Source: Bifidobacteriaceae bacterium
GTDB lineage: Bacteria; Actinomycetota; Actinomycetes; Actinomycetales; WQXJ01
Assembly (NCBI GenBank): GCA_031278075.1
Contig: JAITLE010000170.1
Span: 1 to 41,733 of the forward strand
Length of the DNA stretch: 41,733 bases
Direction: 5' to 3'
Under the pieces are notes generated by a model that saw only the letters and a program-made list of their open reading frames with translations, was not told where the DNA came from and did no database searches. This document shows, one piece after another, positions 24,977-40,681 of this stretch. Each line of letters begins with the position of its first letter. The stretch's first letter is position 1. The translations under genes and the position numbers were made by a program.

Positions 24977-25729
24977 ATGGCTGGCAGATTTGACGGAAAA
25001 ACCGTGTTGATAATTGGCGCGGCGACAGGCATCGGCAAGGCGGCGGCGCTGGCGTTCGCGCGAGAGGGCGCGAACTTGGTGCTCAGCGCCTACCGCACAC
25101 CGCCGGACGTGGTCGATGAGATCACCGCGGCTGGGGGCGTCGCCAGCGCGGTCAAGATGGATGTGAGCGACGAGGCGTCGGTCAAGAACGCGATCGCCAC
25201 CGTGGTGGAACGCCACGGCCGGCTCGACGTCGCCTTCAACAACGCCGGCTCGTTGCCGATGACGAAGCCGCTGGCGGACTTCACCGCGGAAGAATTCCAG
25301 CACACTCTGCGAGTGGACCTGATCGGGACGTTCCTGGCCATGAAGTATGAGATCCAGCAGATGCTGAAGGACGGCGGCGGCTCGATCATCAACACCGGAT
25401 CGGTCGTCTCTGTGGTGGCGGATCCGGGCATGGCGCCGTACGTCGCCGCCAAACACGGCGTGCTCGGCTTGAGCCGCGCCGCCGCCCTCGAATACGCCGA
25501 GCGGGGGATCCGCGTCAACACCCTGGCGCCAGGTCTGATCGAGACGCCGATGACGGCCCGCTGGCTCGCGGACCCCGCCTTCCGTGCCGTTGTGACCGGC
25601 CAGAACGCCGTGCGCCGCGTGGGCCGTCCGGAAGAGATCGCGGGAATCGTGCTGTACCTGGCCTCCGACGATGCCTCGTTCGCGACCGGGGGCGTGTTCG
25701 TGGTCGACGGCGGGCAGACGGCCCATTGA
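24977..25729 (+). CDS. SDR-family oxidoreductase
   Basis: ATG at 24977 follows GGGAGG. TGxxxGIG appears as GAATGIGKA, with NNAG and the catalytic YVAAK. Confidence 0.9.
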   Translation: MAGRFDGKTVLIIGAATGIGKAAALAFAREGANLVLSAYRTPPDVVDEITAAGGVASAVKMDVSDEASVKNAIATVVERHGRLDVAFNNAGSLPMTKPLADFTAEEFQHTLRVDLIGTFLAMKYEIQQMLKDGGGSIINTGSVVSVVADPGMAPYVAAKHGVLGLSRAAALEYAERGIRVNTLAPGLIETPMTARWLADPAFRAVVTGQNAVRRVGRPEEIAGIVLYLASDDASFATGGVFVVDGGQTAH

Positions 25730-25745
25730 GCGGCGGGCGCGGCCA

Positions 25746-26474
25746 GTGAGGACAATCGTCGTCTACAAGTGGGCGCGCGCCGCCGCCAGCGCCGTCGTCC
25801 GCCAGGGTGGGCAGGTCGATTGGGGTGGCGCCAGGCTCGCCGCCGGCGAGGACGATCCGGCCGCGTTGGCTGTGGCGCAGGCGTTGGCCACGCAGAGCGG
25901 CGATGTGGCTGGCCTGACGATCGGCGACGGCGAGACCGCGTGGGCTTTGGCCAGGGGCGCCGACGCCGCCCATGCCGTCCCCGCCCTCGGCCCGTTGACG
26001 GACAACGCGGCCACCGCGAAGGCCCTGGCCAGCGCGGTGCGGCAGATCGCGGCGAGCCAAGCGGTCGATGTGGTGGTGATCGGCGACGCGACGGCTGACC
26101 CGGGCGTGGCCGCGGCGCTCGCGGCCGAACTGGGTTGGCCGGCGTTGCTCGGCGTGACCTCGGCGGCGCCGGCGGGTGACCGTGTCACGGCTGCTCGTCG
26201 GGTCGGCAACGCGATCGAGACGGTGTCGCTGCCGACGCCGGCCGTGCTCGCGGTGGCGGCCGTCGGCGAGGAGGCCCGCGCCCCGGGGATGATGGAGCTG
26301 ATCAAAGCGCGCAAGAAGCCGGTGGCGCAGCTGACGGTCGAAGCCCCGGCGGAAGGCGTCTCGCAGCGGGCCACCCGCCTGCCCGCCGCGGCCGGCGCGC
26401 GGTTGTTCGAGGGTGACGCCGACACCGCCGCCCAGGCTTTGGTCGCGGCGCTGAGAGGGGATGGTTTGCTGTGA
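25746..26474 (+). CDS. fixA: Electron transfer flavoprotein beta-subunit-like protein (FixA-like)
   Basis: GTG at 25746 is codon 26 of the track ORF. The N-terminus is VRTIVVYKWA..., the length is about 242 aa, and a GTGA overlap couples it to the following ETF-alpha gene. It is divergent from canonical EtfB, so the assignment rests partly on context. Confidence 0.7.
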   Translation: MRTIVVYKWARAAASAVVRQGGQVDWGGARLAAGEDDPAALAVAQALATQSGDVAGLTIGDGETAWALARGADAAHAVPALGPLTDNAATAKALASAVRQIAASQAVDVVVIGDATADPGVAAALAAELGWPALLGVTSAAPAGDRVTAARRVGNAIETVSLPTPAVLAVAAVGEEARAPGMMELIKARKKPVAQLTVEAPAEGVSQRATRLPAAAGARLFEGDADTAAQALVAALRGDGLL

Positions 26475-27436
26475 GCGTCTGGGTGTTGGCGACCGACCCC
26501 GATCAGTTGGAGCCGCTGGTGGCGGCCGGGCGTCAGGCCGGCGTCGAAGTGGCCGTGGTGGCGGTTGGGTCCCGGGAGTTGGCTGAGGCGGCGGCGGTCA
26601 GCGGCGCGGACCAGGTGCGTTGGATCCAGACGCACGATGCCGTGCCGCCCGAGGCGTACGCGCCTCAAGTCGCGGCGTTGGCGCGCGGGGCTGGCGCCGG
26701 GGCGCGAGTCTGGCTCGCGGGGAACGCGCCCGCCGCCAGGGCGTTGCTTGGCGCCGCGGCGGTCGCGGCCGGGGCCGCCTTGGTGGGCGGGGGCTTGTCC
26801 CTGGCGTTCGAGGGCGGTGTGGTGGTGCTCGACCGCGTGATCTTGGCGGGCGCCGTGATCGAGACCTTGGAAGCGGCCGGGAAGCTGGCGGTGATCTGGG
26901 AGTCGAGTGGCGCGGGCGACGCGGTGGGCGGCGCGGTGGGAGGCGCGGTGGGCGTGCCGATCGAGGAGGTCTTGGCCGCCGCCGCGCCCGGCGCTGGCGC
27001 CGGCGGGCCGGCGCCGTGGGACATGCGGCGCGAGGCGACCCAGGTGGCGGCGACCGCGGCCGGCCTCGCGGACGCTCCCCGGGTGGTCGGTGTGGGCCGG
27101 GGCCTCAGATCCCGCGCCGATCTGGTGGTCGTGGAAGAACTGGCGCGGGCTCTCGGCGCGGAGATCGCGTGCTCCATGCCGTTGGCGGATGACCTCCATT
27201 GGTTCCCGGAGGAACGCTACATCGGCCGGTCGGGCCAAAAGATCGCGCCCCGCGTGTACCTGGCTCTCGGGATCGCCGGTGAGCCACAGCACATGGAGGG
27301 CGTGCGGAACGCGAAAGTGGTGGCGGCGGTCAACAACGACCCGGGCGCGACTGTGTTCCGTCACGCCACGTACGGCATCGTCGGCGATCTCTATGAAGTC
27401 GCGCCCGCGCTGACGCGGGCGCTCGAACACAACTGA
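26471..27436 (+). CDS. fixB: Electron transfer flavoprotein alpha subunit (FixB-like)
   Basis: The C-terminal FAD-binding region is VVGVGRGL...ELARALGAEIACSMPLADD..W.P.ERYIGRSGQKIAPRVYLALGIAGEPQHMEGV...VVAVNNDP. Confidence 0.85.
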   Translation: MSVWVLATDPDQLEPLVAAGRQAGVEVAVVAVGSRELAEAAAVSGADQVRWIQTHDAVPPEAYAPQVAALARGAGAGARVWLAGNAPAARALLGAAAVAAGAALVGGGLSLAFEGGVVVLDRVILAGAVIETLEAAGKLAVIWESSGAGDAVGGAVGGAVGVPIEEVLAAAAPGAGAGGPAPWDMRREATQVAATAAGLADAPRVVGVGRGLRSRADLVVVEELARALGAEIACSMPLADDLHWFPEERYIGRSGQKIAPRVYLALGIAGEPQHMEGVRNAKVVAAVNNDPGATVFRHATYGIVGDLYEVAPALTRALEHN

Positions 27437-27457: not shown

Positions 27458-28939
27458 ATGGCAACATTCGACGTTGAATACGACCTGGTGGTGGTCGGGG
27501 GCGGAGGCTCCGGCAAGATGGCGGCCTACATTGGCGCCAAAGAAGGGGGCCTCGCGACCGCTCTGCTGGAGAAGGCCCCCGAGACGGGCGGCAGCTCGGT
27601 TTTCGCGGAGGGTCAGGCCGCATTCGAGTCCAGCGAGCAGCTGGCGCGCAAGACGCCGCCGACCCCCGGGATGCACTATCCCTCGCGCGCCGAGGGCTAC
27701 AAGCGTTACATCGACTACAGCCACAAGCGGGCCAACCCGGATGTGGTCCGGATGCAGGTCACCCACACCGCCGAGACCATCGACATCATGAAGTCGCTCG
27801 GGATCGTCTACACGGACGTCACGATCTACGCCTATGAGCAGCCGACCGAGCTGAACTCGTTCCACCGGCCGGACGGCCTCGGGGCCCACATGCAGGAGGT
27901 GCTGCTGCAGGCCACCGTCGACGCGGGCGTGGACATTTTCACTTCGACTCCGGCGAAGCAGTTGATCGTCGAAGACGGCAAGGTGGTCGGCGTGATCGCG
28001 GAGGACGCGGACGGCAAGACCATCCGGATCGGCGCCAAGGCGGTCGTCTTGGCGGGCGGCGGCTTCGGCGGCAACCTCGACATGGTGCGGGCGCATTCAC
28101 GCTTCGCGCGCAACGCGGACGCCTTGATCTACATGGGGCCGGAGCCGAACACCGGCGACACCATCAACATGGCCCTGGCGATCGGCGCCGACACGTGGGA
28201 GATGCAACCGCTCATGCTGGTGCCAGTGGCCAAGGACAAGAGCTTGGTGGCGCACATCAACGGCGGCGGCTCCCAGCCGGTGCTGTGGGTCAACAAGACG
28301 GGCCAGCGTTACTACGACGAGCACGTCGCCCTGAGCTTCGCGGACGCGGCCAACGTCATCGCCATCCAGCCGGGCGGCGCCTCCTACTCGATCATGGACC
28401 AGGCGACGGTTCAGCACCTGATCGACGACGGCAGCGACATCGGCCTGGGGGACTTCGTCAAGTACCACCTGCCGCTGACTGGTCTGCAAACCGAGTTGGA
28501 CGAGGCCGTCGCGGAAGGCGACATGGCTTGGAAGGCCGACTCGATCCCGGAGCTGGCCGAGGCGATCGGCTTGGATCCCGAGGTCTTCACGGCCACTGTG
28601 GCCCTCTACAACGAGTTCGCCGAGGACGGCGACGACCCGCTGTTCTACAAAGACGCGAAGTATCTGCGGCCCGTCAAGACGGCGCCGTTCTACGCCATCG
28701 AGATGCGGGCCGCCATCCTGGTCTCGGTGGGGGCGCTGCGCGTCAACGGCGATCTGCAGGTGATCGGCGTCGACGCCAAGCCGATCGAGGGCCTGTACGC
28801 CGTCGGCATGGACGCGGGCGGGCTGTTCGGCGACACCTACAACCTGGACGTGCCTGGCACCGCCAACGGCTTCGCGCACGCCAGCGGCCGGGTCGCGGCT
28901 CGTCACGCCATCGGGGCGATCAAAGCGGCGGCCGTCTGA
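27458..28939 (+). CDS. FAD-binding flavoprotein of the fumarate-reductase / 3-ketosteroid-dehydrogenase (FAD_binding_2) type
   Basis: AAGGAGA SD is present. The N-terminus is YDLVVVGGGGSGKMAA...LEKAPETGGSS and the C-terminus is GLYAVGMDAGGLFG. There is no signal peptide or TM segment. Confidence 0.85.
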   Translation: MATFDVEYDLVVVGGGGSGKMAAYIGAKEGGLATALLEKAPETGGSSVFAEGQAAFESSEQLARKTPPTPGMHYPSRAEGYKRYIDYSHKRANPDVVRMQVTHTAETIDIMKSLGIVYTDVTIYAYEQPTELNSFHRPDGLGAHMQEVLLQATVDAGVDIFTSTPAKQLIVEDGKVVGVIAEDADGKTIRIGAKAVVLAGGGFGGNLDMVRAHSRFARNADALIYMGPEPNTGDTINMALAIGADTWEMQPLMLVPVAKDKSLVAHINGGGSQPVLWVNKTGQRYYDEHVALSFADAANVIAIQPGGASYSIMDQATVQHLIDDGSDIGLGDFVKYHLPLTGLQTELDEAVAEGDMAWKADSIPELAEAIGLDPEVFTATVALYNEFAEDGDDPLFYKDAKYLRPVKTAPFYAIEMRAAILVSVGALRVNGDLQVIGVDAKPIEGLYAVGMDAGGLFGDTYNLDVPGTANGFAHASGRVAARHAIGAIKAAAV

Positions 28940-28982: not shown

Positions 28983-30293
28983 GTGGATGTCGACTTCGAC
29001 GTGATCGTGGTCGGCGCGGGCGTGGCCGGCTGTGTGGCAGCCCACCAGCTGGCCACGGCCGGGCGCTCTGTTCTGTTGGTGGAACGGGGCGCCCAGGTCG
29101 GCGACAAGGCGCTGTCTGGCGGGGTGCTCTACTGCCGGGTGATGGAGCAGATCTTCCCGGGATTCCTGGAGCGGGCGCCGGTGGAGCGCGCCATCACCCG
29201 CAACTGTTTGAGCTTCATGAACTCGGACAGCTTCGTCAACATCGACTACGCCGACGACCGCCTGGGCGCCCCGGTCAACGCGGTCTCGGTGCTGCGCGCC
29301 AAACTCGACGCTTGGCTGGGCGAACAGTGCGAGGCGGCCGGCGCCATGGTGATGCCCGGCGTGTTGGTGGACCGGCTGTTGCTGGAGGGCGGCAGGGTCC
29401 TCGGTGTGGGGGCCGGCGAGGACGAGTTGCGCTGTCACGTGGTCGTGGCCGCCGATGGCGTCAACTCGTTCGTCGCCCGCGACGCGGGCCTGCGTGACCC
29501 GGATCCACCCCGCCACCTGGCGCTCGGCGTGAAGTCTGTGATCGCCCTGGACCGCTCGACAATTGAGGCGCGGTTCAACCTGCCGGCGGCCGGCGGCGCG
29601 GGCGGCCTGGCCGAGGGCGCCGCCTACGCCGTAGTCGGCGACTGCACCAAAGGTGTCGGCGGCGGGGGTTTCATGTACACCAATTTGGAGTCGGTCTCGA
29701 TTGGGTTGGTGCTGCGTTTGGACGATCTGGCGCGCAGCGGCGAGACCGCATCTGATCTGCATGACCGCTTCTTGGACCACCGCCGTGTGGCGCCGTTCCT
29801 CGAAGGCGGCGAGCTGTTGGAATACGGCGCGCACCTGGTCGCGGAGGGCGGCGCCGCGATGGTCCGCGGCTTGGTGGCGCCGGGTCTGGTGCTGGTCGGG
29901 GAGGCCGCCGGCCTAGCGCTCAACACAGGGTTGACGGTGCGCGGCATGGATCTGGCGGCGGGCTCGGCGCTCGCGGCCGCCAAGTGCGTCGACGCCGCAT
30001 TGGCTGCGGGAGACTGCTCGGCGGCTGGTCTCGCCTCCTATGAGGCCGCCCTGCGGGCCAGCTTCGTCGGACGCGACATCGAGACCTACCGGCGGGCGCC
30101 GGCGTTCTTGGAGGGCACGCGGATGTTCAACGATTACGGCCCGCTGCTGGCAGATGTCTTCCACGGTGTCTACAACCTGGATTTGTCCCCGCGGCGGCGG
30201 CTGGTCAAGACGGCCCGCGCCGCGGTGAAGGCGTCGCCGGTCAGATTGGTGGACTTGGCGCGCGACGCCTGGGCGGCGATGAGGGCGTTGTGA
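28983..30293 (+). CDS. fixC: FixC-type FAD-dependent oxidoreductase (ETF-quinone oxidoreductase-like)
   Basis: FDVIVVGAGVAGCVAA...LLVERG...GDKALSGGVLY...VVAADGVNSF is a typical FixC pattern. Confidence 0.85.
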   Translation: MDVDFDVIVVGAGVAGCVAAHQLATAGRSVLLVERGAQVGDKALSGGVLYCRVMEQIFPGFLERAPVERAITRNCLSFMNSDSFVNIDYADDRLGAPVNAVSVLRAKLDAWLGEQCEAAGAMVMPGVLVDRLLLEGGRVLGVGAGEDELRCHVVVAADGVNSFVARDAGLRDPDPPRHLALGVKSVIALDRSTIEARFNLPAAGGAGGLAEGAAYAVVGDCTKGVGGGGFMYTNLESVSIGLVLRLDDLARSGETASDLHDRFLDHRRVAPFLEGGELLEYGAHLVAEGGAAMVRGLVAPGLVLVGEAAGLALNTGLTVRGMDLAAGSALAAAKCVDAALAAGDCSAAGLASYEAALRASFVGRDIETYRRAPAFLEGTRMFNDYGPLLADVFHGVYNLDLSPRRRLVKTARAAVKASPVRLVDLARDAWAAMRAL

Positions 30294-32071: not shown

Positions 32072-32084
32072 CACCCCCGAGATG

Positions 32085-32448
32085 TGGAGCTGGGGGGAAT
32101 TGAACCCCCGTCCGAGAACCAAAGCACAGGTCTTCTCCGGGCGCAGCCAACGAGCGGTTTTCTCAGCCCCGGCGCTGTTGCTGGCGACGCGCCGCCGGGC
32201 TCAGTTGTCTAGAAGTCCCCGTCCGCCGGACAACACAGCGGACGAGCAGTGGGCTGCTTCACGACGCCAAATCCCAAGCCGCAGCCATTCTTGGGTTGAC
32301 GGGCAAACCTCTCGCCTCAGGCGGCGAGGGTGTAGCCGGTGCGGTTAGATTTCGCACTTATTGTTCACGTGGAGCGTTTACGAGATAACCACGTCTCCTC
32401 GGCCCGCTTCTCCTGAGTCGACGATCCCCGTCGAAACCGATCAGCCCC
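32085..32448 (-). ncRNA. ssrA: tmRNA (SsrA)
   Basis: The 5' end is GGGGCTGATCGGTTTCGACGGGG and the 3' end is GGACGGGGGTTCAATTCCCCCCAGCTCCA. The acceptor stem has the G3:U alanine identity pair. The internal tag ORF at 32355..32317, gcg aaa tct aac cgc acc ggc tac acc ctc gcc gcc tga, encodes AKSNRTGYTLAA. Only the first C of the CCA end is encoded. Confidence 0.92.
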
Positions 32449-32492: not shown

Positions 32493-33068
32493 CTATTCCC
32501 GCCCGCCGCCGGCGGGCGGCCCATCCCCGGCGGGCAGGGTCTGCCCGGGGTAGACCTCATCTTCGTCGTGCCACACCTCGAGGGTCACGCCCGCGCCGGC
32601 GAACAGGTCCCTCGATTGCTGGGCGGCGTGGTAGCGCCGCAACGCCACGACCCGCTCGACGCCCGCGCTGATCAGCAGCATCGCACAAGTGGCGCACGGC
32701 TCCATGGTGCAATAGCACGTGGTGCCGGCCAGCGGCAGCCCGTACCTGGCGGCCTGGGCCAGGGCGTTCTGCTCAGCGTGGACGGTGCGCACACAATGGG
32801 TCCGCAGCGACCCGTCGTCTTCGACGACCTTGCGCCACAGGTGGCCCGCCTGGTCGCAGTGTTCCAGACCCGGCGGGGAGCCGACATACCCGGAGCAGAT
32901 GATCCGGTGGTCGCGCACCACGATGGCGCCGGAGCGCCCCCTGTCGCACGTCGCCCGGCCGGCCACCAGCGGGACCAATTGGACGAAGTATTCGTCCCAG
33001 CTAGGGCGGCGCCCACCCTGGTCGTTGGTGAGGGGATCGAAAGCGCCGGGAACACTCAAATCTGGCAT
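32493..33068 (-). CDS. Deoxycytidylate (dCMP) deaminase, ComEB-like
   Basis: The zinc motifs HAEQNA and PCATCA are present, and the N-terminus SWDEYFV is typical of dCMP deaminases. Confidence 0.85.
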   Translation of the reverse strand: MPDLSVPGAFDPLTNDQGGRRPSWDEYFVQLVPLVAGRATCDRGRSGAIVVRDHRIICSGYVGSPPGLEHCDQAGHLWRKVVEDDGSLRTHCVRTVHAEQNALAQAARYGLPLAGTTCYCTMEPCATCAMLLISAGVERVVALRRYHAAQQSRDLFAGAGVTLEVWHDEDEVYPGQTLPAGDGPPAGGGRE

Positions 33069-33111: not shown

Positions 33112-34371
33112 TCAGCGCCCGGGTTCTGGGCGGACCAAGCGGATGTCCCGGCCCGCCGCCCAGGCGCCGATGTCGTCTCGACGCAGAGCGACCGCCATCA
33201 GATCCGGGAACTGATCCGGGGTGCAGGCGAACACCGGCACGCCAAGAGCGGCGACCTTGGCGGCGGTGTCCGCCGAATAACCCGGATTGCCCTGGTCGGT
33301 GAGCGCCACGAGCACCACCACGTTGACACCGACCCGCGTCAACGCCGAGAGACGCCTCAACAGCTGCGTCTCATCGCCGCCCTCGTACAGATCGGTCAAC
33401 AGGATCAGGTGCGCCTTCGTCGGCTGGTCGATCAGCTCCGCGCAGTAGGCCACGGCCTGGTTGATGTCGGTGCCGCCGCCCAACTGGATCCCGAACAGGA
33501 CCTCCACCGGGTCCGCGAGCTGGTCGGTCAAGTCAACCACCGACGTGTCGAAGCACACCAAGTTGGTCGCGACCGCGGGCAGCGCCGCCATCACCGCCGA
33601 GAAAATGGACGCGTAGACGACCGACGAGGCCATCGACCCCGATTGGTCGACGCACATCACAACCCGGTCCAGGTCCGCCGCGCGTTTTTGCCGCCGGGCG
33701 AATCCGACCAGCGTCTCCGGGACCACCGCGGCGTAGGCGGGCTGGTAGTGCCGCAGATTGGCGGTGATTGTCCGATGCCAGTCGATGTCCCTCGGCCTGG
33801 GGCGGCGGGTTCGCCTGGACCTGTCCCGCACGCCACGCACCGCCTCGGCCATTCTCAGCTCGAGGCGTTCCATCAGCGCTTGGACCACATCGGCGACGAC
33901 CGCCCGCGCCGCGTCCTTGGCCTTCGCGGGCATCGCCCGCCCCAGCGCCATCAGATCCGCGACCAGGTTGACGTCGCGCTCCACCGATTCGAGGACCTCA
34001 GGCTGGAGCAGCATCTCAGTCAGGCCGAGCCGGTCGAGCGCGTCGCGTTGCACAACTTGGACGACCCCCCGCGGGAAGAACTCCCGCAGGTCGTCGAGCC
34101 AGGCCGCCAACGCGCGGGGCGACGACTTCCCCAGACCGCCCCGGCGCCGCTTGTCTTGAGGCGCCGCACGATGCCGACCGCCTGGGTCCGCGCCCCCGTC
34201 CGGCGCCTGCCCGTACACCGCGTCCAACGCCGCCGAGAGGCGCCCGTCCCTGGCGTCGAGGCCCTCGCCTAGGCCCAGCGCAAGACTCCACCGCCGTTCG
34301 GCGAGGTCTTTCTCGTCGAGCGCGTCGTCGAGGAACGCGGCGGCCCCGTCCTCGCGTCCAGGATCACACAT
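33112..34371 (-). CDS. vWA-domain protein with a complete MIDAS (last gene of the SWIM/AAA+/vWA operon)
   Basis: ATG at 34371 overlaps the upstream stop (ATGTGTGA). The MIDAS residues are DQSGSM, GGGTDI and LLTDLYEGG. The N-terminal roughly 230 aa are helical and unassigned. Confidence 0.85.
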   Translation of the reverse strand: MCDPGREDGAAAFLDDALDEKDLAERRWSLALGLGEGLDARDGRLSAALDAVYGQAPDGGADPGGRHRAAPQDKRRRGGLGKSSPRALAAWLDDLREFFPRGVVQVVQRDALDRLGLTEMLLQPEVLESVERDVNLVADLMALGRAMPAKAKDAARAVVADVVQALMERLELRMAEAVRGVRDRSRRTRRPRPRDIDWHRTITANLRHYQPAYAAVVPETLVGFARRQKRAADLDRVVMCVDQSGSMASSVVYASIFSAVMAALPAVATNLVCFDTSVVDLTDQLADPVEVLFGIQLGGGTDINQAVAYCAELIDQPTKAHLILLTDLYEGGDETQLLRRLSALTRVGVNVVVLVALTDQGNPGYSADTAAKVAALGVPVFACTPDQFPDLMAVALRRDDIGAWAAGRDIRLVRPEPGR

Positions 34372-36484
34372 GGCGGCCTCGGGCCAGGATCGGCGCCAAC
34401 ACGTCGAAGTGGGCGGCCCACACGGCATCGGGCAAGGTGACAACGCCCGGCAGAGACTTGACCACCTCGCCCAGAGCGGCCTGGCGCAAGCGTTTGCGTT
34501 CCATCGCGTCGAGGTCCGCGAACACCCTCCTCAGCAGCGGCAAGTAGGCCAGGAAGTCAGCGTCTTCGAGCCCACGGATCCAGCGGTCGACCGCCTCACG
34601 CAGCGGCGCGTCGTAGATCAACCGTGCCGCTTGGGTGGAGAAGAACCCCTCGACGAAACGCGCCGCCACCGCGGCGGGCGTTCCCGGGCTGAGGCGACGC
34701 GCCAGCAGGCCGACCGCCGCCTCGGGCGTCAACCGGTCCGCTGTGTAGAGCAGCTGGCCGGCCGCGCCCGCCGCGAAGGCCTCCCCGCCGGCCAAAACCC
34801 CCGCGAGCGCCTCGAACCAAACCCCCCACGTCTCCTCGGCAGGGTCCAACAACTCCAAACCGGCCTGCGCCGACCGCAGCCGGTCCACGAGAGCCGCGGC
34901 GGCGGAATCGTCCAACCCACGTGCGGCGTGCCGCAACCCGAGCGCGGCCTGGACCGCCAAACGCTCCGCCAACGCGGCCAACGGCGTCATGTCCGCCTGG
35001 CGGGCCTGACCATAGCGGGCGATCTCCGCGATGGGCGCCACCGATCCCAACAGCTGACCGACATCGCTGGTCAGGGCCGCTCTCCCCTCCAACAGTCGCA
35101 GGCCGACGGCCCACGCCTCGGGCAGGGACGCGGTCACTGACCGGCTCACCAGGTGAGCGAGCGTCGCCAAGTCCTGCGCCCCGCGCATCGCCTCCTCCAG
35201 GTAGGCGTCGGCGGCCCCGACCAACTCCGACCCATAGATCACGCGTTCGACCAACACCACACTGAACTCAGGGTCCCAGCGCAGCTTCCAGTTCTCACGG
35301 AACGTCCCGCGCGACCCGCCCACCGATTGGGGCTGGCCCCACGGCACCCCGAGCGCGCACAGCCTGTGCAGGAGCAGCGACCGCTCCCGCCCGGCGTCCG
35401 ATCTGAGGTCCAACGTGAGGCTCCGCTCTAGCGCCTCGGGTTTCAGCCGCGTGGCGCGCTGGGCTCTTTGCACGTCCGCGATCAGGGGCGCGGCCGGGCC
35501 GTCCTCGGGCGCCGCGCCGACGTCGCGGCCGAGCAGCAGTTCCGCTTCGATGCTGCGCCACACCAGATCTTCGCCGCCGAACAGGCAAGCCACAGCCGCA
35601 TCCCGCAGCTCCTCGAAGCCAGACCGCGGCCGGCCGCGCAGCGCCGCGAGCGCCAGGGCGAGCCGCTCCGCCTCGATCAGGTCCGCGGTTGAGACGCCGT
35701 GTCCTCTCGTCCGCAACAGGGCCCCGATCCGCGCCAACCACCGGCTGTTCGAGTCCGCACGCCCCCAAGTCCGCCAGATGTGCTGATTCCAGCCCGGCGC
35801 GTCGACGCCAGCGCCGTACCCCGTCCCACTCGCCAGCCGCGCGAGGCTCCACGGCGCCCACGTCGCCTGGATCTTGGCGCGCGGCAGCCCCACCAGCAGG
35901 CGTCGGTCCTCTGTCGCTCGTGTGGGGCCGGTCAGCGCCGGAACGTGCCACGCGCCGCACACCACCGCCACTGGGCCGGCGGCGCCCTTGGCCGCCTGCG
36001 CGATCTTCAGCCGCATATGCGCCTCGCGTTTGGCTTCCCAGGGTTCGGTCGGCTCCAGGCGCCGCAGTTCCGCCATCGCCTCGGCCACCGCCCCAAACAC
36101 GGGCCCCGGGCTGGGGTTCTGCTCCAGCAGGTCGCACCACCAGGACTCCGCGTCCAGGTAGCCGGCCGCCGCCGCCAGCTCTCCCAGGGGGTCGCGCCGC
36201 AGCCGCTCTCCCCGCCGCGCGTCTCCGTCCTCCGCCGCGTCGTCACCGCGACCAGCGGCGGCGGGCAGGTCGATGAATTCGGCGGCCGCGTCGTGGCGAA
36301 GCGCCCAGAGCGCCGCCTGATACTCCGGCGAGAACTCGGCGAACGGCCAAAACGCGGCGTTCGCCGGATCGCCCTTCGGATAGGCGAGCAAGGCGATCGG
36401 CGGCCGCATGCCGGGCGCGGCGAGCTGCGCGATCAGGTGTGTCGCGTCGGCTGGACCCTCGATCAGGACCACGGCGGGGGCCAA
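34364..36484 (-). CDS. Large uncharacterised protein (DUF5682-like, by recollection); the ancestral start is apparently at 36559, interrupted by TAG at 36547..36545
   Basis: The track ORF starts at TTG 36484. The same frame continues upstream as FPIRHHGPGSAASLSRALDE back to a TAG that is preceded by ATG ACA GTC CAC. That ATG (36559) lies 4 nt after the AAA+ stop. Confidence 0.75.
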   Translation of the reverse strand: MAPAVVLIEGPADATHLIAQLAAPGMRPPIALLAYPKGDPANAAFWPFAEFSPEYQAALWALRHDAAAEFIDLPAAAGRGDDAAEDGDARRGERLRRDPLGELAAAAGYLDAESWWCDLLEQNPSPGPVFGAVAEAMAELRRLEPTEPWEAKREAHMRLKIAQAAKGAAGPVAVVCGAWHVPALTGPTRATEDRRLLVGLPRAKIQATWAPWSLARLASGTGYGAGVDAPGWNQHIWRTWGRADSNSRWLARIGALLRTRGHGVSTADLIEAERLALALAALRGRPRSGFEELRDAAVACLFGGEDLVWRSIEAELLLGRDVGAAPEDGPAAPLIADVQRAQRATRLKPEALERSLTLDLRSDAGRERSLLLHRLCALGVPWGQPQSVGGSRGTFRENWKLRWDPEFSVVLVERVIYGSELVGAADAYLEEAMRGAQDLATLAHLVSRSVTASLPEAWAVGLRLLEGRAALTSDVGQLLGSVAPIAEIARYGQARQADMTPLAALAERLAVQAALGLRHAARGLDDSAAAALVDRLRSAQAGLELLDPAEETWGVWFEALAGVLAGGEAFAAGAAGQLLYTADRLTPEAAVGLLARRLSPGTPAAVAARFVEGFFSTQAARLIYDAPLREAVDRWIRGLEDADFLAYLPLLRRVFADLDAMERKRLRQAALGEVVKSLPGVVTLPDAVWAAHFDVLAPILARGRHV

Positions 36485-36563
36485 CTCGTCCAGGGCGCGC
36501 GACAGGCTAGCCGCCGAGCCCGGCCCGTGGTGGCGGATCGGGAACTAGTGGACTGTCATCGGC

Positions 36564-37643
36564 TCACAGCGCCTCCCCAAGTTCGGCGTAGTACTGCGCG
36601 TAGCCGCGGCGTCTCTTCAGCACCGTCTCGAGGTATTCGGCGAGGACGGCCTTGTCTTGGACCGGGTCTTTGACGATCGCCCCGACCATCGGGGCGGCGA
36701 GTTCCCGCGCGCCGAGCTGGCCGTCTGCGAACCAGGCGGCCTGTGACAGGCCGCCGACCAGCGTGCCGATCGCCTCAGCGGTGGACAGCGTGCCGGACGG
36801 GGTCTTGAGGGTGACCTTGTTGTCCGCGGTCACACCGGACCTGAGTTCGCGGAACACGGTCAAGACGGCCTTGATCTGTTCGTCCACACCGCGCGGCACC
36901 GGCAAGGCGAGGTCGTCGGCGAGTTCGCGGACGCGGCGGCGGACGATCGACACCTCCTCCTCGAGCGTCGCCGGCAGCGGGAGCACCACCACGTTGAAGC
37001 GGCGTTTCAGCGCGGACGAGAGCTCGTTGACGCCCTTGTCACGGCTGTTCGCGGTCGCTATCACGTTGAAGCCACGCCTCGCGGGCAGAGCGGTCGCCAG
37101 CTCGGGGATCGGCAGCACCTTCTCGCTGAGCACCGTGATCAGGGTGTCCTGCACATCCGATCCGAGACGGGTGAACTCCTCTAGGCGGCAGAGCGCTCCC
37201 TCGCGCATGGCGCGCATCAGGGGCGTGGCGACAAGGGCCGCCTCACTCGGGCCGTGGGCGAGCAACTCGGCGTAGTTCCAGCCGTAACGGATCTGGGTCT
37301 CGTCGGTGCCGGCGGTGCATTGGATCAGCAATGTCGAATCACCGGCGATCGCGGCGGCCAGGTGTTCGGAGACCCACGATTTGGCGGTGCCCGGGACACC
37401 CATCAGCAGCAGCGCGCGGTCGGTGGCGAGGGTCGCGACGGCCGTCTCGATCAGTCGCCGCTGGCCGACGTATTTCGGTGTGATCGCGGTCCCGCCTGGA
37501 GCGGCGCCGCCCATCAGGTAGGTCAGGACCGCCTTCGGGGTGAGCTTCCAGCCGACCGGCCTGGGGCCATCGTCGGCCGCGCTGAGGGCCGCGAGTTCTG
37601 CGGCATAGCTTTGTTCGGCGCTGAGGCGGAGCACATCGGTCAT
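36564..37643 (-). CDS. MoxR/AAA_5-type AAA+ ATPase
   Basis: Walker A is GVPGTAKS, the Walker B region is LCRLEEF, sensor 1 is VIATANSRD and the Arg motif is SALKRRF. There is an ATGA overlap with the upstream gene. Confidence 0.9.
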   Translation of the reverse strand: MTDVLRLSAEQSYAAELAALSAADDGPRPVGWKLTPKAVLTYLMGGAAPGGTAITPKYVGQRRLIETAVATLATDRALLLMGVPGTAKSWVSEHLAAAIAGDSTLLIQCTAGTDETQIRYGWNYAELLAHGPSEAALVATPLMRAMREGALCRLEEFTRLGSDVQDTLITVLSEKVLPIPELATALPARRGFNVIATANSRDKGVNELSSALKRRFNVVVLPLPATLEEEVSIVRRRVRELADDLALPVPRGVDEQIKAVLTVFRELRSGVTADNKVTLKTPSGTLSTAEAIGTLVGGLSQAAWFADGQLGARELAAPMVGAIVKDPVQDKAVLAEYLETVLKRRRGYAQYYAELGEAL

Positions 37644-39124
37644 GGTTCGATTCCTTCTTTGGCAGGGTCTGACAGGCGGGCGTTCAGAGTCAGCGCGGCG
37701 AGGGCTGGCGTCGACGATGGGACGCCGAGGTACTCGAGGTGGCCCAACACGCCGTGGGCGGCGTTAGGGGTCATCATGGTGGCGAGGGCGGCCAAGCGGC
37801 GCGGCCCGGTGGCGGCTTCGCCGGCGTGGCCGGTGACCAGATCCTCGACCAGTGCGGCCGTCGGCATGAACGGCCCGACATCCATAGAGCCGATCAGGTC
37901 CAGGTCTACCGCGGCCGCGATGGCCTCAAGGGCATCGGGGCCGTCTTGCCGGGAAGCTTTGAGGAGCGCCAACACGACAGGCGCCGCGCTCTTGAGGCTG
38001 AGGCGGGCCAGAAGCGAACGGGCCGCCGCGTGCGACTCCTTCGAACGGGCGAGCTTCGCCGCCAGCGCCTCCACCTGCGCGTCGGAGCCGGAGCGGGCCA
38101 CCAGCTCGGCGAACGCCTCGGCGGACGGGAGCGAGTCCCGCTCGGCGGCGCCCCAGGCCTTCACCAGCTGATCCGGCTCGAGCCCGAGAGCGGCGGCCAA
38201 CTCCGGCAGCACGAGATCGGCGAATAGCCGGTCGCGGCGCGCCGCCGACTGGCCCTTGGCCAACCGAGCGGCCTTCACCGTCCGGCCCCTGCGAAGAAGG
38301 CCTTCGGATTCGAGGGTGAAATAGGTCGCGAGCTCTTCGGCCGCAGGGGATGTGTCCGCCACGCCCAGCCGCCCTAGCAGGGCTTTCGCTGTGGCTCTGA
38401 CCGGCTGGGCGCGATCCGCCAGCAGCTCGGTGAGGAGTTCGGCGTCATCCGTGGTCAGGCCATGTGCGACTGTCTCCACGAGCGCCGCCCGGCCGGCCGC
38501 CGGGAGGTGGGCCAGCTGCTCACGGAGCCTCGTGCGCGAGGCTTGCGGGTCGCTCAGCCGCAGGCGCCGCATGGCGGCCGCGCGCTCCGCTGGCCGCATC
38601 TGCCGCCAGTCCTCGCTGGTCGCGGCCGCGTCGACGGGCACGGCAGGGGGCCCGGACGCGGCGGCCTCGGGCCCCGGCGCGGCGGCTCGCGCCGGCTCGG
38701 CAGCCGTCTGGGACCAGGCGATCCAAGGAGCGTAAAGCGCGGGGACGCCGGCATCATCCTGGCCGGGGAACCAATCCGCCGGGTGCACGGCGAAGCCGCG
38801 CCGCGCGACCAACCTGATCACGGCCTCCCGGCTGGGCCCGAAGGCCAACGCGGCGCGCAGGGTCCCCCGCAGCTCCTGCGGCGCCTGCGGCACAGCCAAG
38901 CGGGGCAACGGCGGCCGCTGGACCGCGTCGGAAGGCAGGCCAGGGCGCAGCGCCACGGTGTCGAATTGGGCCGCGAGGGCCGCGAGCGCCCGCTCTTGGG
39001 CCGCTGGCTCCCCTGCGGCCACCAGTTCAGACCAGGCCGCCGGCGCCAGCCGCCGCGCCTCGCCGCCGACCACCCAGCATTCCATCATGGCGGCGTACGC
39101 GCTGGTCAAAGACTGGCCGGTCAC
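37640..39124 (-). CDS. Ala/Leu-rich helical protein of unknown function (DUF5691-like, by recollection)
   Basis: GTG at 39124 forms a GTGA overlap with the SWIM gene stop. It is codon 97 of track ORF 37640..39412. I recognise no catalytic motif. Confidence 0.7.
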   Translation of the reverse strand: MTGQSLTSAYAAMMECWVVGGEARRLAPAAWSELVAAGEPAAQERALAALAAQFDTVALRPGLPSDAVQRPPLPRLAVPQAPQELRGTLRAALAFGPSREAVIRLVARRGFAVHPADWFPGQDDAGVPALYAPWIAWSQTAAEPARAAAPGPEAAASGPPAVPVDAAATSEDWRQMRPAERAAAMRRLRLSDPQASRTRLREQLAHLPAAGRAALVETVAHGLTTDDAELLTELLADRAQPVRATAKALLGRLGVADTSPAAEELATYFTLESEGLLRRGRTVKAARLAKGQSAARRDRLFADLVLPELAAALGLEPDQLVKAWGAAERDSLPSAEAFAELVARSGSDAQVEALAAKLARSKESHAAARSLLARLSLKSAAPVVLALLKASRQDGPDALEAIAAAVDLDLIGSMDVGPFMPTAALVEDLVTGHAGEAATGPRRLAALATMMTPNAAHGVLGHLEYLGVPSSTPALAALTLNARLSDPAKEGIEP

Positions 39125-40584
39125 ATCGTCACCGGCCCGAACTCGCTTTGGGCGGCCAACAGATCGAGCCGCGCGCCGTCCCAGATCCCGAAGGCCTCCA
39201 AGCGCGATCCGAGGAGCGCCACGGGGCACGGCCGCGCCAGCGGGAGAGCCACGGCGCCGCCGCCCCACCACAGTTGGACACCGCCCCCTTGCACGATTCC
39301 GCCCGGCCCCAACAGCGCAGGCGCCTCCAGTTCCCACGGGGCCGCGTCCCATAGCTGGCGGCAGGCGGCCAAGGGGTCGAACTCGGTCCCGCCGGGCGCG
39401 GGCGCTGGCCACGCGAGACGCTCACGCACCGGCTCTTGGGTCGCGATCACCGCCCGGACGGGCGGCCCGCCGGGGTAATACACCAGCTCCGCCGCGATTT
39501 GGCGGCCTGCCGGCATCTGGGCCGGCGCCCGCGGCGCCGTCACCGGGTAATAGTCCTGCAGCAACGCGCAAGGCGGTCCTTCACCGAGGTTGATCAGCCA
39601 GGTGGCGTGCGAGATCAGCCTGTCCCGCCGCGTTGTGACGCGGCTGCCCGCCACCTCCCAGACCGAGGTTGTGCGCAAGGCGCGCGGGTCGGCGAGCACC
39701 GCGGCCCGCTGTTCGGCCACGCCCACTGCCCGCCGGATGTGTGGCGCGGTCGGATCGGCCCGCCAGGCTTGGGCCAGCAGAACCAGTTTTCCGAGTTCCC
39801 GGACGGCTTGCCGCGCCCGCTCGGCGCTGGGCAGGGCGAACAGGCGGGCAGGCATCTCGTCCACGCGGGAGGCGAGCGACCCCGCCTTGTGGTCCACCAG
39901 CCGGGCCGCGATGCGGCGGCAGCGTTGCGGGGCTTCAGCGACCAGCCGGGTGAGGCCAGCGCGGAGTTGGTCGGAGATCCAGTCCTCGAGCTCGTCGAGT
40001 CCGGCAGCGATCGAGGCTTCCGTCGCCGCCCGCCTGGCCTGGGATCTGACGTCGTCTTGGGGCGCCTCGGCTGAGAACAATGCGATCTCGCCGCCGGGCG
40101 GGAAGTGCTCGGAGGCGATGAGTCGATCCGCGGGGCCGGACACGTCGGTCAGGGGCCGTGTCGCTGTGGGCTGGGGGGCCCCGCCCAAGCCGGGCCGAGC
40201 GGACGGCATCGGGCGCTGGGACGTCGTCGCGGGCTTGGGCGCCTGGCGGCCCTGACTCGGACGGCGGCGGCCGAGCCACTCGCCCACCCACTCGGGGGCG
40301 GCGCAGGGCACTATCGCGCTGGCGTCGGTCGCGGCGATCAACATCAGCGCGAGCACATGTTTACAGGGCGCCTTGCGGGAGGGGCAGGTGCAGCGATACC
40401 CCATGTCACGGGCGTCCACGCCGACCTGATACGGGTTCGCGCCGGAACCCTGGCACTCGCCCCAGAGGATCAAGGCCTGCGAGCCGAGCACCGGCCAGAG
40501 CGTGAGCTTGGTCAGGCCGCGGGCGGCTTTGAGCGCCGCCTGGTCGGGGGCCAGCGCCTCGACCCGGGGGATCTCAAACCACAT
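39121..40584 (-). CDS. SWIM zinc-finger protein
   Basis: The SWIM signature is CxCx6CxH (YRCTCPSRKAPCKHVLA) near the N-terminus. It is followed by a Pro/Gly-rich linker and an unassigned C-terminal domain of about 300 aa. Confidence 0.85.
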   Translation of the reverse strand: MWFEIPRVEALAPDQAALKAARGLTKLTLWPVLGSQALILWGECQGSGANPYQVGVDARDMGYRCTCPSRKAPCKHVLALMLIAATDASAIVPCAAPEWVGEWLGRRRPSQGRQAPKPATTSQRPMPSARPGLGGAPQPTATRPLTDVSGPADRLIASEHFPPGGEIALFSAEAPQDDVRSQARRAATEASIAAGLDELEDWISDQLRAGLTRLVAEAPQRCRRIAARLVDHKAGSLASRVDEMPARLFALPSAERARQAVRELGKLVLLAQAWRADPTAPHIRRAVGVAEQRAAVLADPRALRTTSVWEVAGSRVTTRRDRLISHATWLINLGEGPPCALLQDYYPVTAPRAPAQMPAGRQIAAELVYYPGGPPVRAVIATQEPVRERLAWPAPAPGGTEFDPLAACRQLWDAAPWELEAPALLGPGGIVQGGGVQLWWGGGAVALPLARPCPVALLGSRLEAFGIWDGARLDLLAAQSEFGPVTM

Positions 40585-40681
40585 GGAGACACCTGCCTAG
40601 GGGTAACCGTTCCGGGGCCAACTACAAGGGTGGCACAGGCGCGCGTCGCGCCGCGCTCCCCGCCGGGCGCATGGGGCCTCG

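Follow-up and report, generated by a model that had tools for sequence, protein, structure and literature searches.

A YehL-type MoxR cassette on a Bifidobacteriaceae metagenome contig, with a premature stop in its DUF5682 gene and a candidate hydrolase domain

The window analysed here is the whole of JAITLE010000170.1, a metagenome contig of 41,733 nt with a G+C content of ~70%, whose nearest relatives are metagenome-assembled genomes (MAGs) labelled Bifidobacteriaceae or Micrococcales. Five minus-strand open reading frames (ORFs) at positions 33112-40584 are, with near certainty, a member of the YehL-type MoxR cassette, which comprises a SWIM zinc-finger protein, a DUF5691 protein, a YehL-type AAA+ ATPase, a DUF5682 (YehM) protein and a vWA (YehP) protein. 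The system is not new, as it corresponds to the named YehL subfamily of MoxR, which has long been uncharacterised. That the cassette is a self-contained, translationally coupled five-gene module that has spread horizontally is well supported by the comparisons described below. Our best overall explanation of the locus joins this identity with a proposed motor-driven mechanism and with a lesion in the window copy, and we give it a probability of roughly 0.6.

The G+C content at third codon positions (GC3) is 0.85-0.87 in each of the five reading frames, which is strong coding evidence at ~70% G+C. Read along the minus strand, the frames encode the SWIM protein (gene 1, 39121-40584, 487 aa; Pfam PF04434, E = 1.5e-6), the DUF5691 protein (gene 2, 37640-39124, 494 aa; PF18944, E = 1.4e-15), the AAA_5 (MoxR) ATPase (gene 3, 36564-37643, 359 aa; Pfam AAA_5, E = 4.6e-37), the DUF5682 protein (gene 4, 34364-36559, 731 codons, the fifth of them a stop; PF18934, E = 2.7e-195) and the VWA_CoxE protein (gene 5, 33112-34371, 419 aa; PF05762, E = 3.2e-54). 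The GTG start of gene 2 overlaps the stop of gene 1 (GTGA), genes 2 and 3 are joined by ATGA, a gap of 4 nt (36560-36563) separates genes 3 and 4, and genes 4 and 5 share 8 nt that hold the stop of the former and the ATG of the latter (ATGTGTGA). The sole gap long enough for a promoter of all five genes is the 97-nt intergenic region 5' of gene 1 (40585-40681, minus strand), as read from the sequence. A consensus scan for promoters and terminators, in which no sigma-70 match was found, is uninformative at ~70% G+C. An earlier note, made from the letters of the window, had described a minus-strand unit of five genes with these junctions, and had quoted the motifs CTCPSRKAPCKH, GVPGTAKS, LCRLEE, IRHHGPGS and the MIDAS set DQSGS/GGGTD/LLTD; frames, junctions and motifs are all present. 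It had also called for profile searches, and Pfam places all five proteins, including the two that were thought to be unassigned, both of which already belong to DUF families. An NCBIfam scan of the five proteins returned nothing specific.

The same arrangement is found far beyond this contig. When one genome per species was scanned, at least 584 loci were recovered, and the listed loci span Alpha-, Beta- and Gammaproteobacteria, Planctomycetota, Cyanobacteria, Chloroflexota, Actinomycetota, Acidobacteriota and Deinococcota; the DUF5682 family as a whole comprises 4,770 clusters at 50% identity. The cassettes of a Bifidobacteriaceae MAG (L001) and of Mesorhizobium amorphae (L002) show identical order and strand and the same overlaps of 4, 4 and 8 nt at junctions 1/2, 2/3 and 4/5, and the gap between genes 3 and 4 is 3 nt in the former, 5 nt in the latter and 4 nt in the window. 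Further relatives keep the same five-gene layout. In a tblastn search with the window proteins over 82 loci, carried out around DUF5682, the ATPase was detected in 74 (59-89% identity to the window protein), the vWA protein in 71 (47-74%) and the SWIM protein in 66 (26-54%), and most of the misses lie at contig ends. Moreover, a same-strand ORF fills the slot between the SWIM and ATPase genes in 60 of the 60 loci having both, and the slot ORF is a PF18944 member in 10 of 10 distant examples tested (E = 1e-98 to 1e-133). Recurrence of the same five genes in unrelated genomes, in one order and with one junction geometry, is far beyond chance. The co-conservation that the earlier note had proposed to check is thus seen across many phyla, and together with the junctions it supports the view of a coupled, co-conserved five-gene unit. 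As a side observation, two cyanobacterial loci (L043, 7800-10001; L059, 6506-10001) have an insertion of 1.1-2.4 kb that separates the ATPase gene from the DUF5682 gene, and no vWA gene is present in the remaining downstream contig, which amounts to ~1.8 kb in L043 and a few bases in L059.

It is also evident that three genes of the window cassette have homologues in the yehLMPQ cluster of E. coli K-12. The ATPase is 42% identical to YehL over 349 aa, DUF5682 is 30% identical to YehM, the vWA protein is 35% identical to YehP, and YehQ has a SWIM finger. The two clusters share the R-h-E-E-h-T-R Walker B, the IRHH/LIEGP/PFAEFSPE/FIDLP/REAxM/CGxWH motifs and the CoxE-type vWA domain. The features that define the YehL cassette are found in the window: an ATPase with Walker A GxPGTxK[ST] and the subfamily Walker B, an adjacent DUF5682 gene (its frame broken), an overlapping vWA gene, and SWIM and DUF5691 genes upstream. 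Unlike the window, E. coli has the order AAA - DUF5682 - vWA - SWIM, lacks DUF5691, carries genes for WGR (yehF) and DUF4132 (yehI) proteins upstream, and keeps all its genes intact; YehQ shares only the SWIM finger with the window protein. The likeness to yehLMPQ and to SWIM/DUF5691/AAA/DUF5682/VWA clusters, which the earlier note had put forward, is therefore borne out by homology and Pfam assignment. YehL is one of seven named MoxR subfamilies, and no function is reported for it (PMC3893208). One study lists yehLMPQ among genes linked to H-NS (PMC3686432). The E. coli yehP gene (L083, 11968-13104) is reported to have, at codon 291, a site of efficient +1 ribosomal frameshifting that yields a product 75 aa shorter, and a swarming phenotype of the yehP knockout and a horizontal origin of the gene have been reported (PMC2790909). 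The literature searched makes no mention of DUF5682 or DUF5691 and holds nothing functional on yehM or yehQ. In line with the earlier note, no client, structure or defence annotation was found in the searches of NCBIfam, PADLOC and PDB.

The window copy of gene 4 is interrupted by an in-frame TAG at codon 5 (36545-36547, minus strand), so that its translation starts MTVH*FPIRHHGPGS, with the stop just ahead of IRHHGPGS. This 731-codon frame is not an intact ORF for the fourth protein, which the earlier note had put at ~730 aa. The five closest homologues (58-69% identical) read MTVH[Y/F]FPIRHHGPGS, and the DNA of one relative (L086) reads GTC CAC TAC TTC CCG where the window reads GTC CAC TAG TTC CCG, a difference of one base. 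Because an SD-like GGGGAGG precedes it, the ATG at 36559 is taken as the authentic start. The gene calls of JGI (702 aa) and NCBI (713 aa; CTG start read from coordinates) begin downstream, which affects 36472-36559, and because both callers shifted the start in this way the nonsense codon is hidden and IRHHGPGS is lost. A called start is also displaced in L086 (9930-10010), where the true start is a GTG overlapping the ATPase stop (GTGA) and the call begins 62 nt downstream, again with loss of IRHHGPGS.

The window copy is either inactivated or bears a consensus error. We regard it as an even bet whether, in this copy only, a real nonsense mutation has left the cassette as a decaying relic, or the operon is intact and the TAG reflects a consensus or sequencing error in the metagenome assembly. 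A real mutation agrees with the single-base change from TAC to TAG and with comparable sporadic disruption at other loci, a stop or frameshift in one gene being found at L076, L043, L032, L039 and L068. An error or a very recent event is favoured by the remaining four genes, which are full length, and by gene 4 itself, which has no further stops, a GC3 of 0.87 and 69% identity to its nearest relative along its full length. Because the rest of the cassette is free of defects in this way, the lesion should be very recent if it is not a consensus error. Both gene calls derive from the same contig: a look-up of the 702-aa call found no other contig, and a cluster look-up found only the second call from this one. 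If the TAG is real, full-length DUF5682 would not be made and translational coupling to the vWA gene would probably be weakened. The full machine probably cannot be assembled from the window copy unless the TAG is an assembly error.

Gene 3 has Walker A GVPGTAKS (37377-37400, minus strand) and Walker B LCRLEE (37176-37193, minus strand), in which Glu-Glu replaces Asp-Glu. The form h-R-h-E-E-h-T-R is present in every ATPase homologue examined (IVRFEEITR in E. coli YehL), so that Glu-Glu is, as far as the aligned sequences indicate, a subfamily trait and not special to the window copy. Its best relatives among PDB sequences are the AAA domains of Midasin (1.6e-14) and NorQ (3e-9). Gene 5 retains an intact MIDAS triplet, DQSGS (33634-33648), GGGTD (33466-33480) and LLTD (33391-33402), all on the minus strand; sequence and profile searches of PDB chains with the vWA protein gave no match. 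A MoxR AAA+ protein paired with a MIDAS-bearing vWA protein is also what characterises NorQ-NorD, CbbQ-CbbO, RavA-ViaA and CoxD-CoxE; unlike those pairs, the window cassette has three extra co-inherited proteins and the Glu-Glu Walker B. NorQD, CbbQO and CoxDE are encoded beside their client enzyme; here the neighbours differ between genomes. The AAA_5 motor domains and the MIDAS domain of Midasin/Rea1 resemble this pair as well, and the MIDAS domain of Midasin takes hold of partner proteins and removes them from a large assembly. Midasin differs in being a single giant polypeptide of ribosome biogenesis; the window proteins are separate and bear no ribosomal sign. In the NorQ-NorD system, the vWA finger of NorD enters the NorQ pore and the motor remodels a linker (PMC13036017). 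By analogy, we consider it probable that the cassette follows the same motor-adaptor logic.

The DUF5682 protein is the component for which a catalytic role can be proposed. Its full-length AlphaFold2 (AF2) model (mean pLDDT 81.8) has an alpha/beta domain at the N-terminus, followed by a disordered loop and a C-terminal half that is helical. The N-terminal domain (35852-36544, minus strand), which we put forward as a candidate TIKI/TraB-like hydrolase, carries in order IRHHGPGS (36515-36538), LIEGP (36452-36466), PFAEFSPEYQA (36314-36346), FIDLP (36263-36277), REAHMR (36011-36028) and VVCGAWH (35945-35965), all on the minus strand. The core of these motifs (IRHH.P, L.EGP, PFAxxSPE.QA, F.DL, REAxM and G-x-W-H) is conserved across the phyla sampled, including E. 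coli YehM. Depending on the alignment used, the residues H5/H6, E29, E70/E74, R173 and H200 are either invariant or show conservation of 90% or more (alignment positions H5/H6, E29, R173 and H200 correspond to gene codons 10/11, 34, 178 and 205), and at the motif level only they are collinear with the TraB invariants H41, E67, E159, R228 and H252. A TIKI/TraB fold was predicted from this motif order before any fold or profile test. The TIKI superfamily is defined by a parallel sheet core, a set of two His and two Glu and a conserved Arg (PMC6254334), and DUF5682 shows the 2His/2Glu and Arg order at the motif level. The likeness to the TIKI/TraB/PrgY/GumN/ChaN/erythromycin-esterase superfamily (for example E. 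coli YbaP, RRSP and HopBA1) lies in the order of conserved residues: strand-x-x-H, a Glu closing the next strand, a second Glu, an Arg (REAxM in DUF5682, RNxxW in TraB) and, following a late strand, G-x-x-H. Unlike these members, DUF5682 has two consecutive His residues, a Cys ahead of the final motif and a long, variable insertion that is acidic, and its N-terminal domain is fused to a helical region of ~480 aa inside a MoxR/vWA operon. We know of no TIKI-family protein with such an operon context.

In a Foldseek search of a viral library, the AF2 model of the N-terminal domain (pLDDT 74, pTM 0.75) had as its top match a 'TraB family protein' (E = 1e-3, probability 1.00, 223 columns). In an hhalign comparison, a profile of 135 N-terminal domain sequences scored 29.3 against a nine-sequence TraB alignment (E = 0.002, probability 13%), with E = 0.002-0.003 over the comparisons made with that alignment; reversed controls scored 21-22 (E = 0.025-0.034) and unrelated families 12-19 (E = 0.1-0.8). 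In this alignment LIEGP, FIDLP, REAxMR and GAWH match the conserved Glu, Asp, RNxxW and GALH of TraB. Because the PDB fold search and the profile comparisons are not significant, the TraB match is suggestive only. A histidine-phosphatase ('RHG') reading of IRHHGPGS was dropped as noise, with Sts phosphatase domains appearing at E ~4 in the Foldseek search of PDB. On balance we lean towards a TIKI-like hydrolase domain at the N-terminus of DUF5682.

The loop that follows FIDLP varies from 14 to 557 aa and is usually acidic: the median content of D+E is 23.5%, compared with 13.6% for the whole protein, and in 90% of 72 representatives the loop carries a net negative charge. The copy in the window has a short loop that is charge-neutral. 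In the ten longest representatives of DUF5682 the loop is expanded, and no domains are added or fused. With full-length DUF5682, sequence and profile searches of PDB chains gave no match, and a Foldseek search of PDB gave only helical-repeat and cullin-like structures (best E = 0.03, TM at most 0.19), which were not taken as evidence. The cullin chains CUL1 and CUL5 were returned for the full-length model with probability 0.33-0.75, E = 0.04-0.24 and TM ~0.11-0.13, none significant; their recurrence for the C-terminal half (34364-35850) is curious given a SWIM protein in the same operon.

The two remaining proteins are the fastest-evolving parts of the cassette. Gene 1 has a SWIM finger of the form CxCx6CxH (40357-40392, minus strand), then a Pro/Ala-rich linker that varies and a C-terminal domain of ~300 aa that is conserved. 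The finger residues C65, C67, C74 and H76 are invariant in an alignment of 20 homologues, and a search of PDB sequences with the SWIM family profile gave no match, leaving the C-terminal domain without a known fold. Gene 2 contains 23% Ala and 13% Leu, so that both its length of 494 aa and its composition bear out the Ala/Leu-rich protein described earlier. To judge from sequence, DUF5691 is probably a HEAT-like helical repeat, as weak HEAT matches were found in two of ten distant examples tested; the Pfam fit of the window copy (1.4e-15) is far worse than that of distant copies (1e-98 or better). A relationship of DUF5691 to E. coli YehQ or to YehI (DUF4132) was considered and rejected, since no relationship emerged in the comparisons.

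These features can be arranged into a model in which the AAA_5 ATPase would form a hexameric motor, into which the vWA protein would dock as NorD does in NorQ, with its MIDAS gripping an acidic residue of a partner. DUF5682 would be the likeliest partner because it always travels with the ATPase/vWA pair; it would present a His/Glu/Glu/Arg/His N-terminal domain, then usually an acidic disordered loop, then a helical scaffold. Recognition of the target, or regulation, would fall to the SWIM and DUF5691 proteins, and the complex may be an ATP-gated hydrolase (perhaps a peptidase) whose target occurs in many bacteria. As a full mechanistic model this is tentative, and we consider it rather doubtful that every step is right. 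Its most specific form, a new class of ATP-driven hydrolases in which a MoxR ring and a MIDAS adaptor gate or feed a TIKI/TraB peptidase (DUF5682/YehM) while SWIM and HEAT-like proteins choose the target, is unlikely.

Several observations weigh against the hydrolase assignment and the machine built around it. The TM values of the modelled domain with the viral-library TraB match are only 0.34-0.39; the Foldseek search of PDB with the N-terminal domain gave nothing below E = 0.5, the TIKI-family HopBA1 appearing at rank 27 (E = 5); the hhalign probability against TraB is only 10-13%; and the Pfam Tiki/ChaN family (Cofac_haem_bdg) matches weakly in 1 of 19 members (E = 0.059). An hhalign comparison of the N-terminal domain with E. 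coli YbaP alone likewise gave nothing (probability 0.3%). The Glu-Glu Walker B is unusual. A few loci, L047 (with full 10-kb flanks) and L069, have DUF5682 with the other four genes undetectable. A physical complex of the five proteins is proposed from gene linkage.

The same conserved residues invite another explanation, namely that the cassette matures a metal centre or cofactor, as do CoxD-CoxE, NorQ-NorD and CobS-CobT-CobN, with DUF5682 as the metalloprotein client or insertion subunit and the motor-adaptor pair loading its His/Cys/Glu site. A metal site could be built from the invariant R-H-H, E, E, R-E and C-G-x-W-H, but in fold the full-length model of DUF5682 matches neither CobN/ChlH nor any metalloenzyme, and the single-member Pfam matches that point in this direction (Ferrochelatase, 0.012; haem-binding ChaN, 0.059) are weak and at noise level. 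An AAA_5 motor, a vWA adaptor and a large subunit do parallel the class I chelatases, and the vWA protein falls in the CoxE family (E = 3.2e-54). Characterised MoxR-vWA pairs drive metal insertion (PMC13036017). Maturation leaves the SWIM and DUF5691 partners unexplained, and no metabolic enzyme or cofactor pathway lies consistently nearby. We consider a metal-binding client less likely than a TIKI-like hydrolase as the role of DUF5682, and maturation as the function of the whole cassette quite unlikely.

The genes around the cassette vary from genome to genome. Large upstream neighbours differ in 10 of 10 cases tested and are unrelated (metabolic enzymes, transporters, signalling proteins and one DUF), and 128 flanking ORFs from 39 loci contain 140 Pfam families, none in more than three ORFs, reflecting ordinary metabolism and transport. 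No conserved sixth gene was found among the flanking ORFs examined. Differing flanks fit the earlier proposal that the substrate is not encoded next door, and they fit equally well a client that is one of the five proteins.

This variety of flanks bears on a third explanation, in which the cassette is a biological-conflict (anti-phage or anti-plasmid) vWA-MoxR system whose SWIM and DUF5691 proteins sense an invader and whose motor releases or activates a toxic DUF5682 hydrolase. To judge from the sequences compared, the cassette phylogeny looks incongruent with host phylogeny: the window DUF5682 shares 54-56% identity with copies in Mesorhizobium, Sphingomonas and Bradyrhizobium and only 41-43% with copies in other Actinomycetota (Rhodococcus, Nocardia and Kribbella; comparison loci L048, L055, L056, L072 and L081). 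A patchy distribution that does not follow phylogeny, with the window closer to alphaproteobacterial copies, would suit a conflict system, as would the self-contained module and the sporadic decay of copies (the five disrupted loci named above and the window). The reported horizontal acquisition of E. coli yehP points the same way (PMC2790909). Yet movement on phages and plasmids is barely seen: a DUF5682 probe found 32 of 72,556 plasmid records, mostly megaplasmids or mislabelled chromosomes, and 1 of 50,697 phage records plus 1 IMG/VR locus. None of the five proteins matches PADLOC-DB 2.0 (5,027 models), and the only matches among the 128 flanking ORFs are a scattered handful (ZorB/ZorE, mad3 in two ORFs, AriA and SduA); the large upstream genes tested, ten in all, are ordinary. 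Toxin-antitoxin genes do lie near the cassette in two close relatives, HipA with an HTH protein in L001 and L086 and GNAT/TacA also in L001 (L001, 1060-2567 and 2949-3742; L086, 3987-5555), at ~0.65 kb upstream in L086 and ~1.8-3 kb in L001; there is none at this position in the window. The architecture does not vary, neither effector swapping nor domain fusion being seen, and an ATPase 59-89% identical across phyla is unusually conserved for a defence gene. The comparative data argue against a classic defence-island role, and a conflict function is, in our judgement, improbable.

The earlier note had also placed the operon beside an ssrA integration hot spot. A tmRNA gene (ssrA) is indeed present at 32082-32448 on the minus strand (Rfam, 140.8 bits; ARAGORN tag peptide AKSNRTGYTLAA), so that the position stands, but nothing supports the implied island. 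Because the 3' end of a minus-strand tmRNA points to lower coordinates, it is the 5' side of ssrA that faces the cassette, and a search allowing up to 3 mismatches found the 26-nt 3' end just once in the window, with no att-like repeat. An ssrA-integrated island was rejected, as the cassette is on the wrong side and the 3' end has no direct repeat. Moreover, a deaminase-like ORF (32493-33068, minus strand, 191 aa), which begins 43 nt downstream of the vWA stop, lies between the cassette and ssrA. It bears the HAE...PCxxC zinc signature of cytidine/deoxycytidylate deaminases (VHAEQNAL ... MEPCATCAMLL), and the cassettes of L001, L002, L085 and L086 have no deaminase-like gene at the corresponding position. 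Elsewhere in the window, four plus-strand ORFs (25671-26474, 26471-27436, 27458-28939 and 28983-30293) look by eye like the beta and alpha subunits of an electron-transfer flavoprotein, with two FAD-dependent oxidoreductases after them. Two lipoprotein-like ORFs flanking the region were considered as paralogs, and no paralogy was found.

The interest of the locus rests on the family and on a testable catalytic hypothesis, not on the window copy. For annotation, it exposes a practical problem, in that downstream-shifted starts conceal a nonsense codon. For the family, the comparative work defines an invariant five-gene unit with no conserved neighbour, and the motif analysis offers a catalytic hypothesis in which a TIKI/TraB-like His/Glu site would sit beside an acidic loop that the MIDAS could grip. 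Because the YehL cassette is encoded in E. coli K-12, these hypotheses are cheap to test. If true, they would describe an AAA+-coupled system of bacteria that resembles a protease, is not related to Clp, Lon, FtsH or the proteasome, and occurs in E. coli K-12 as well as in hundreds of species from many bacterial phyla.

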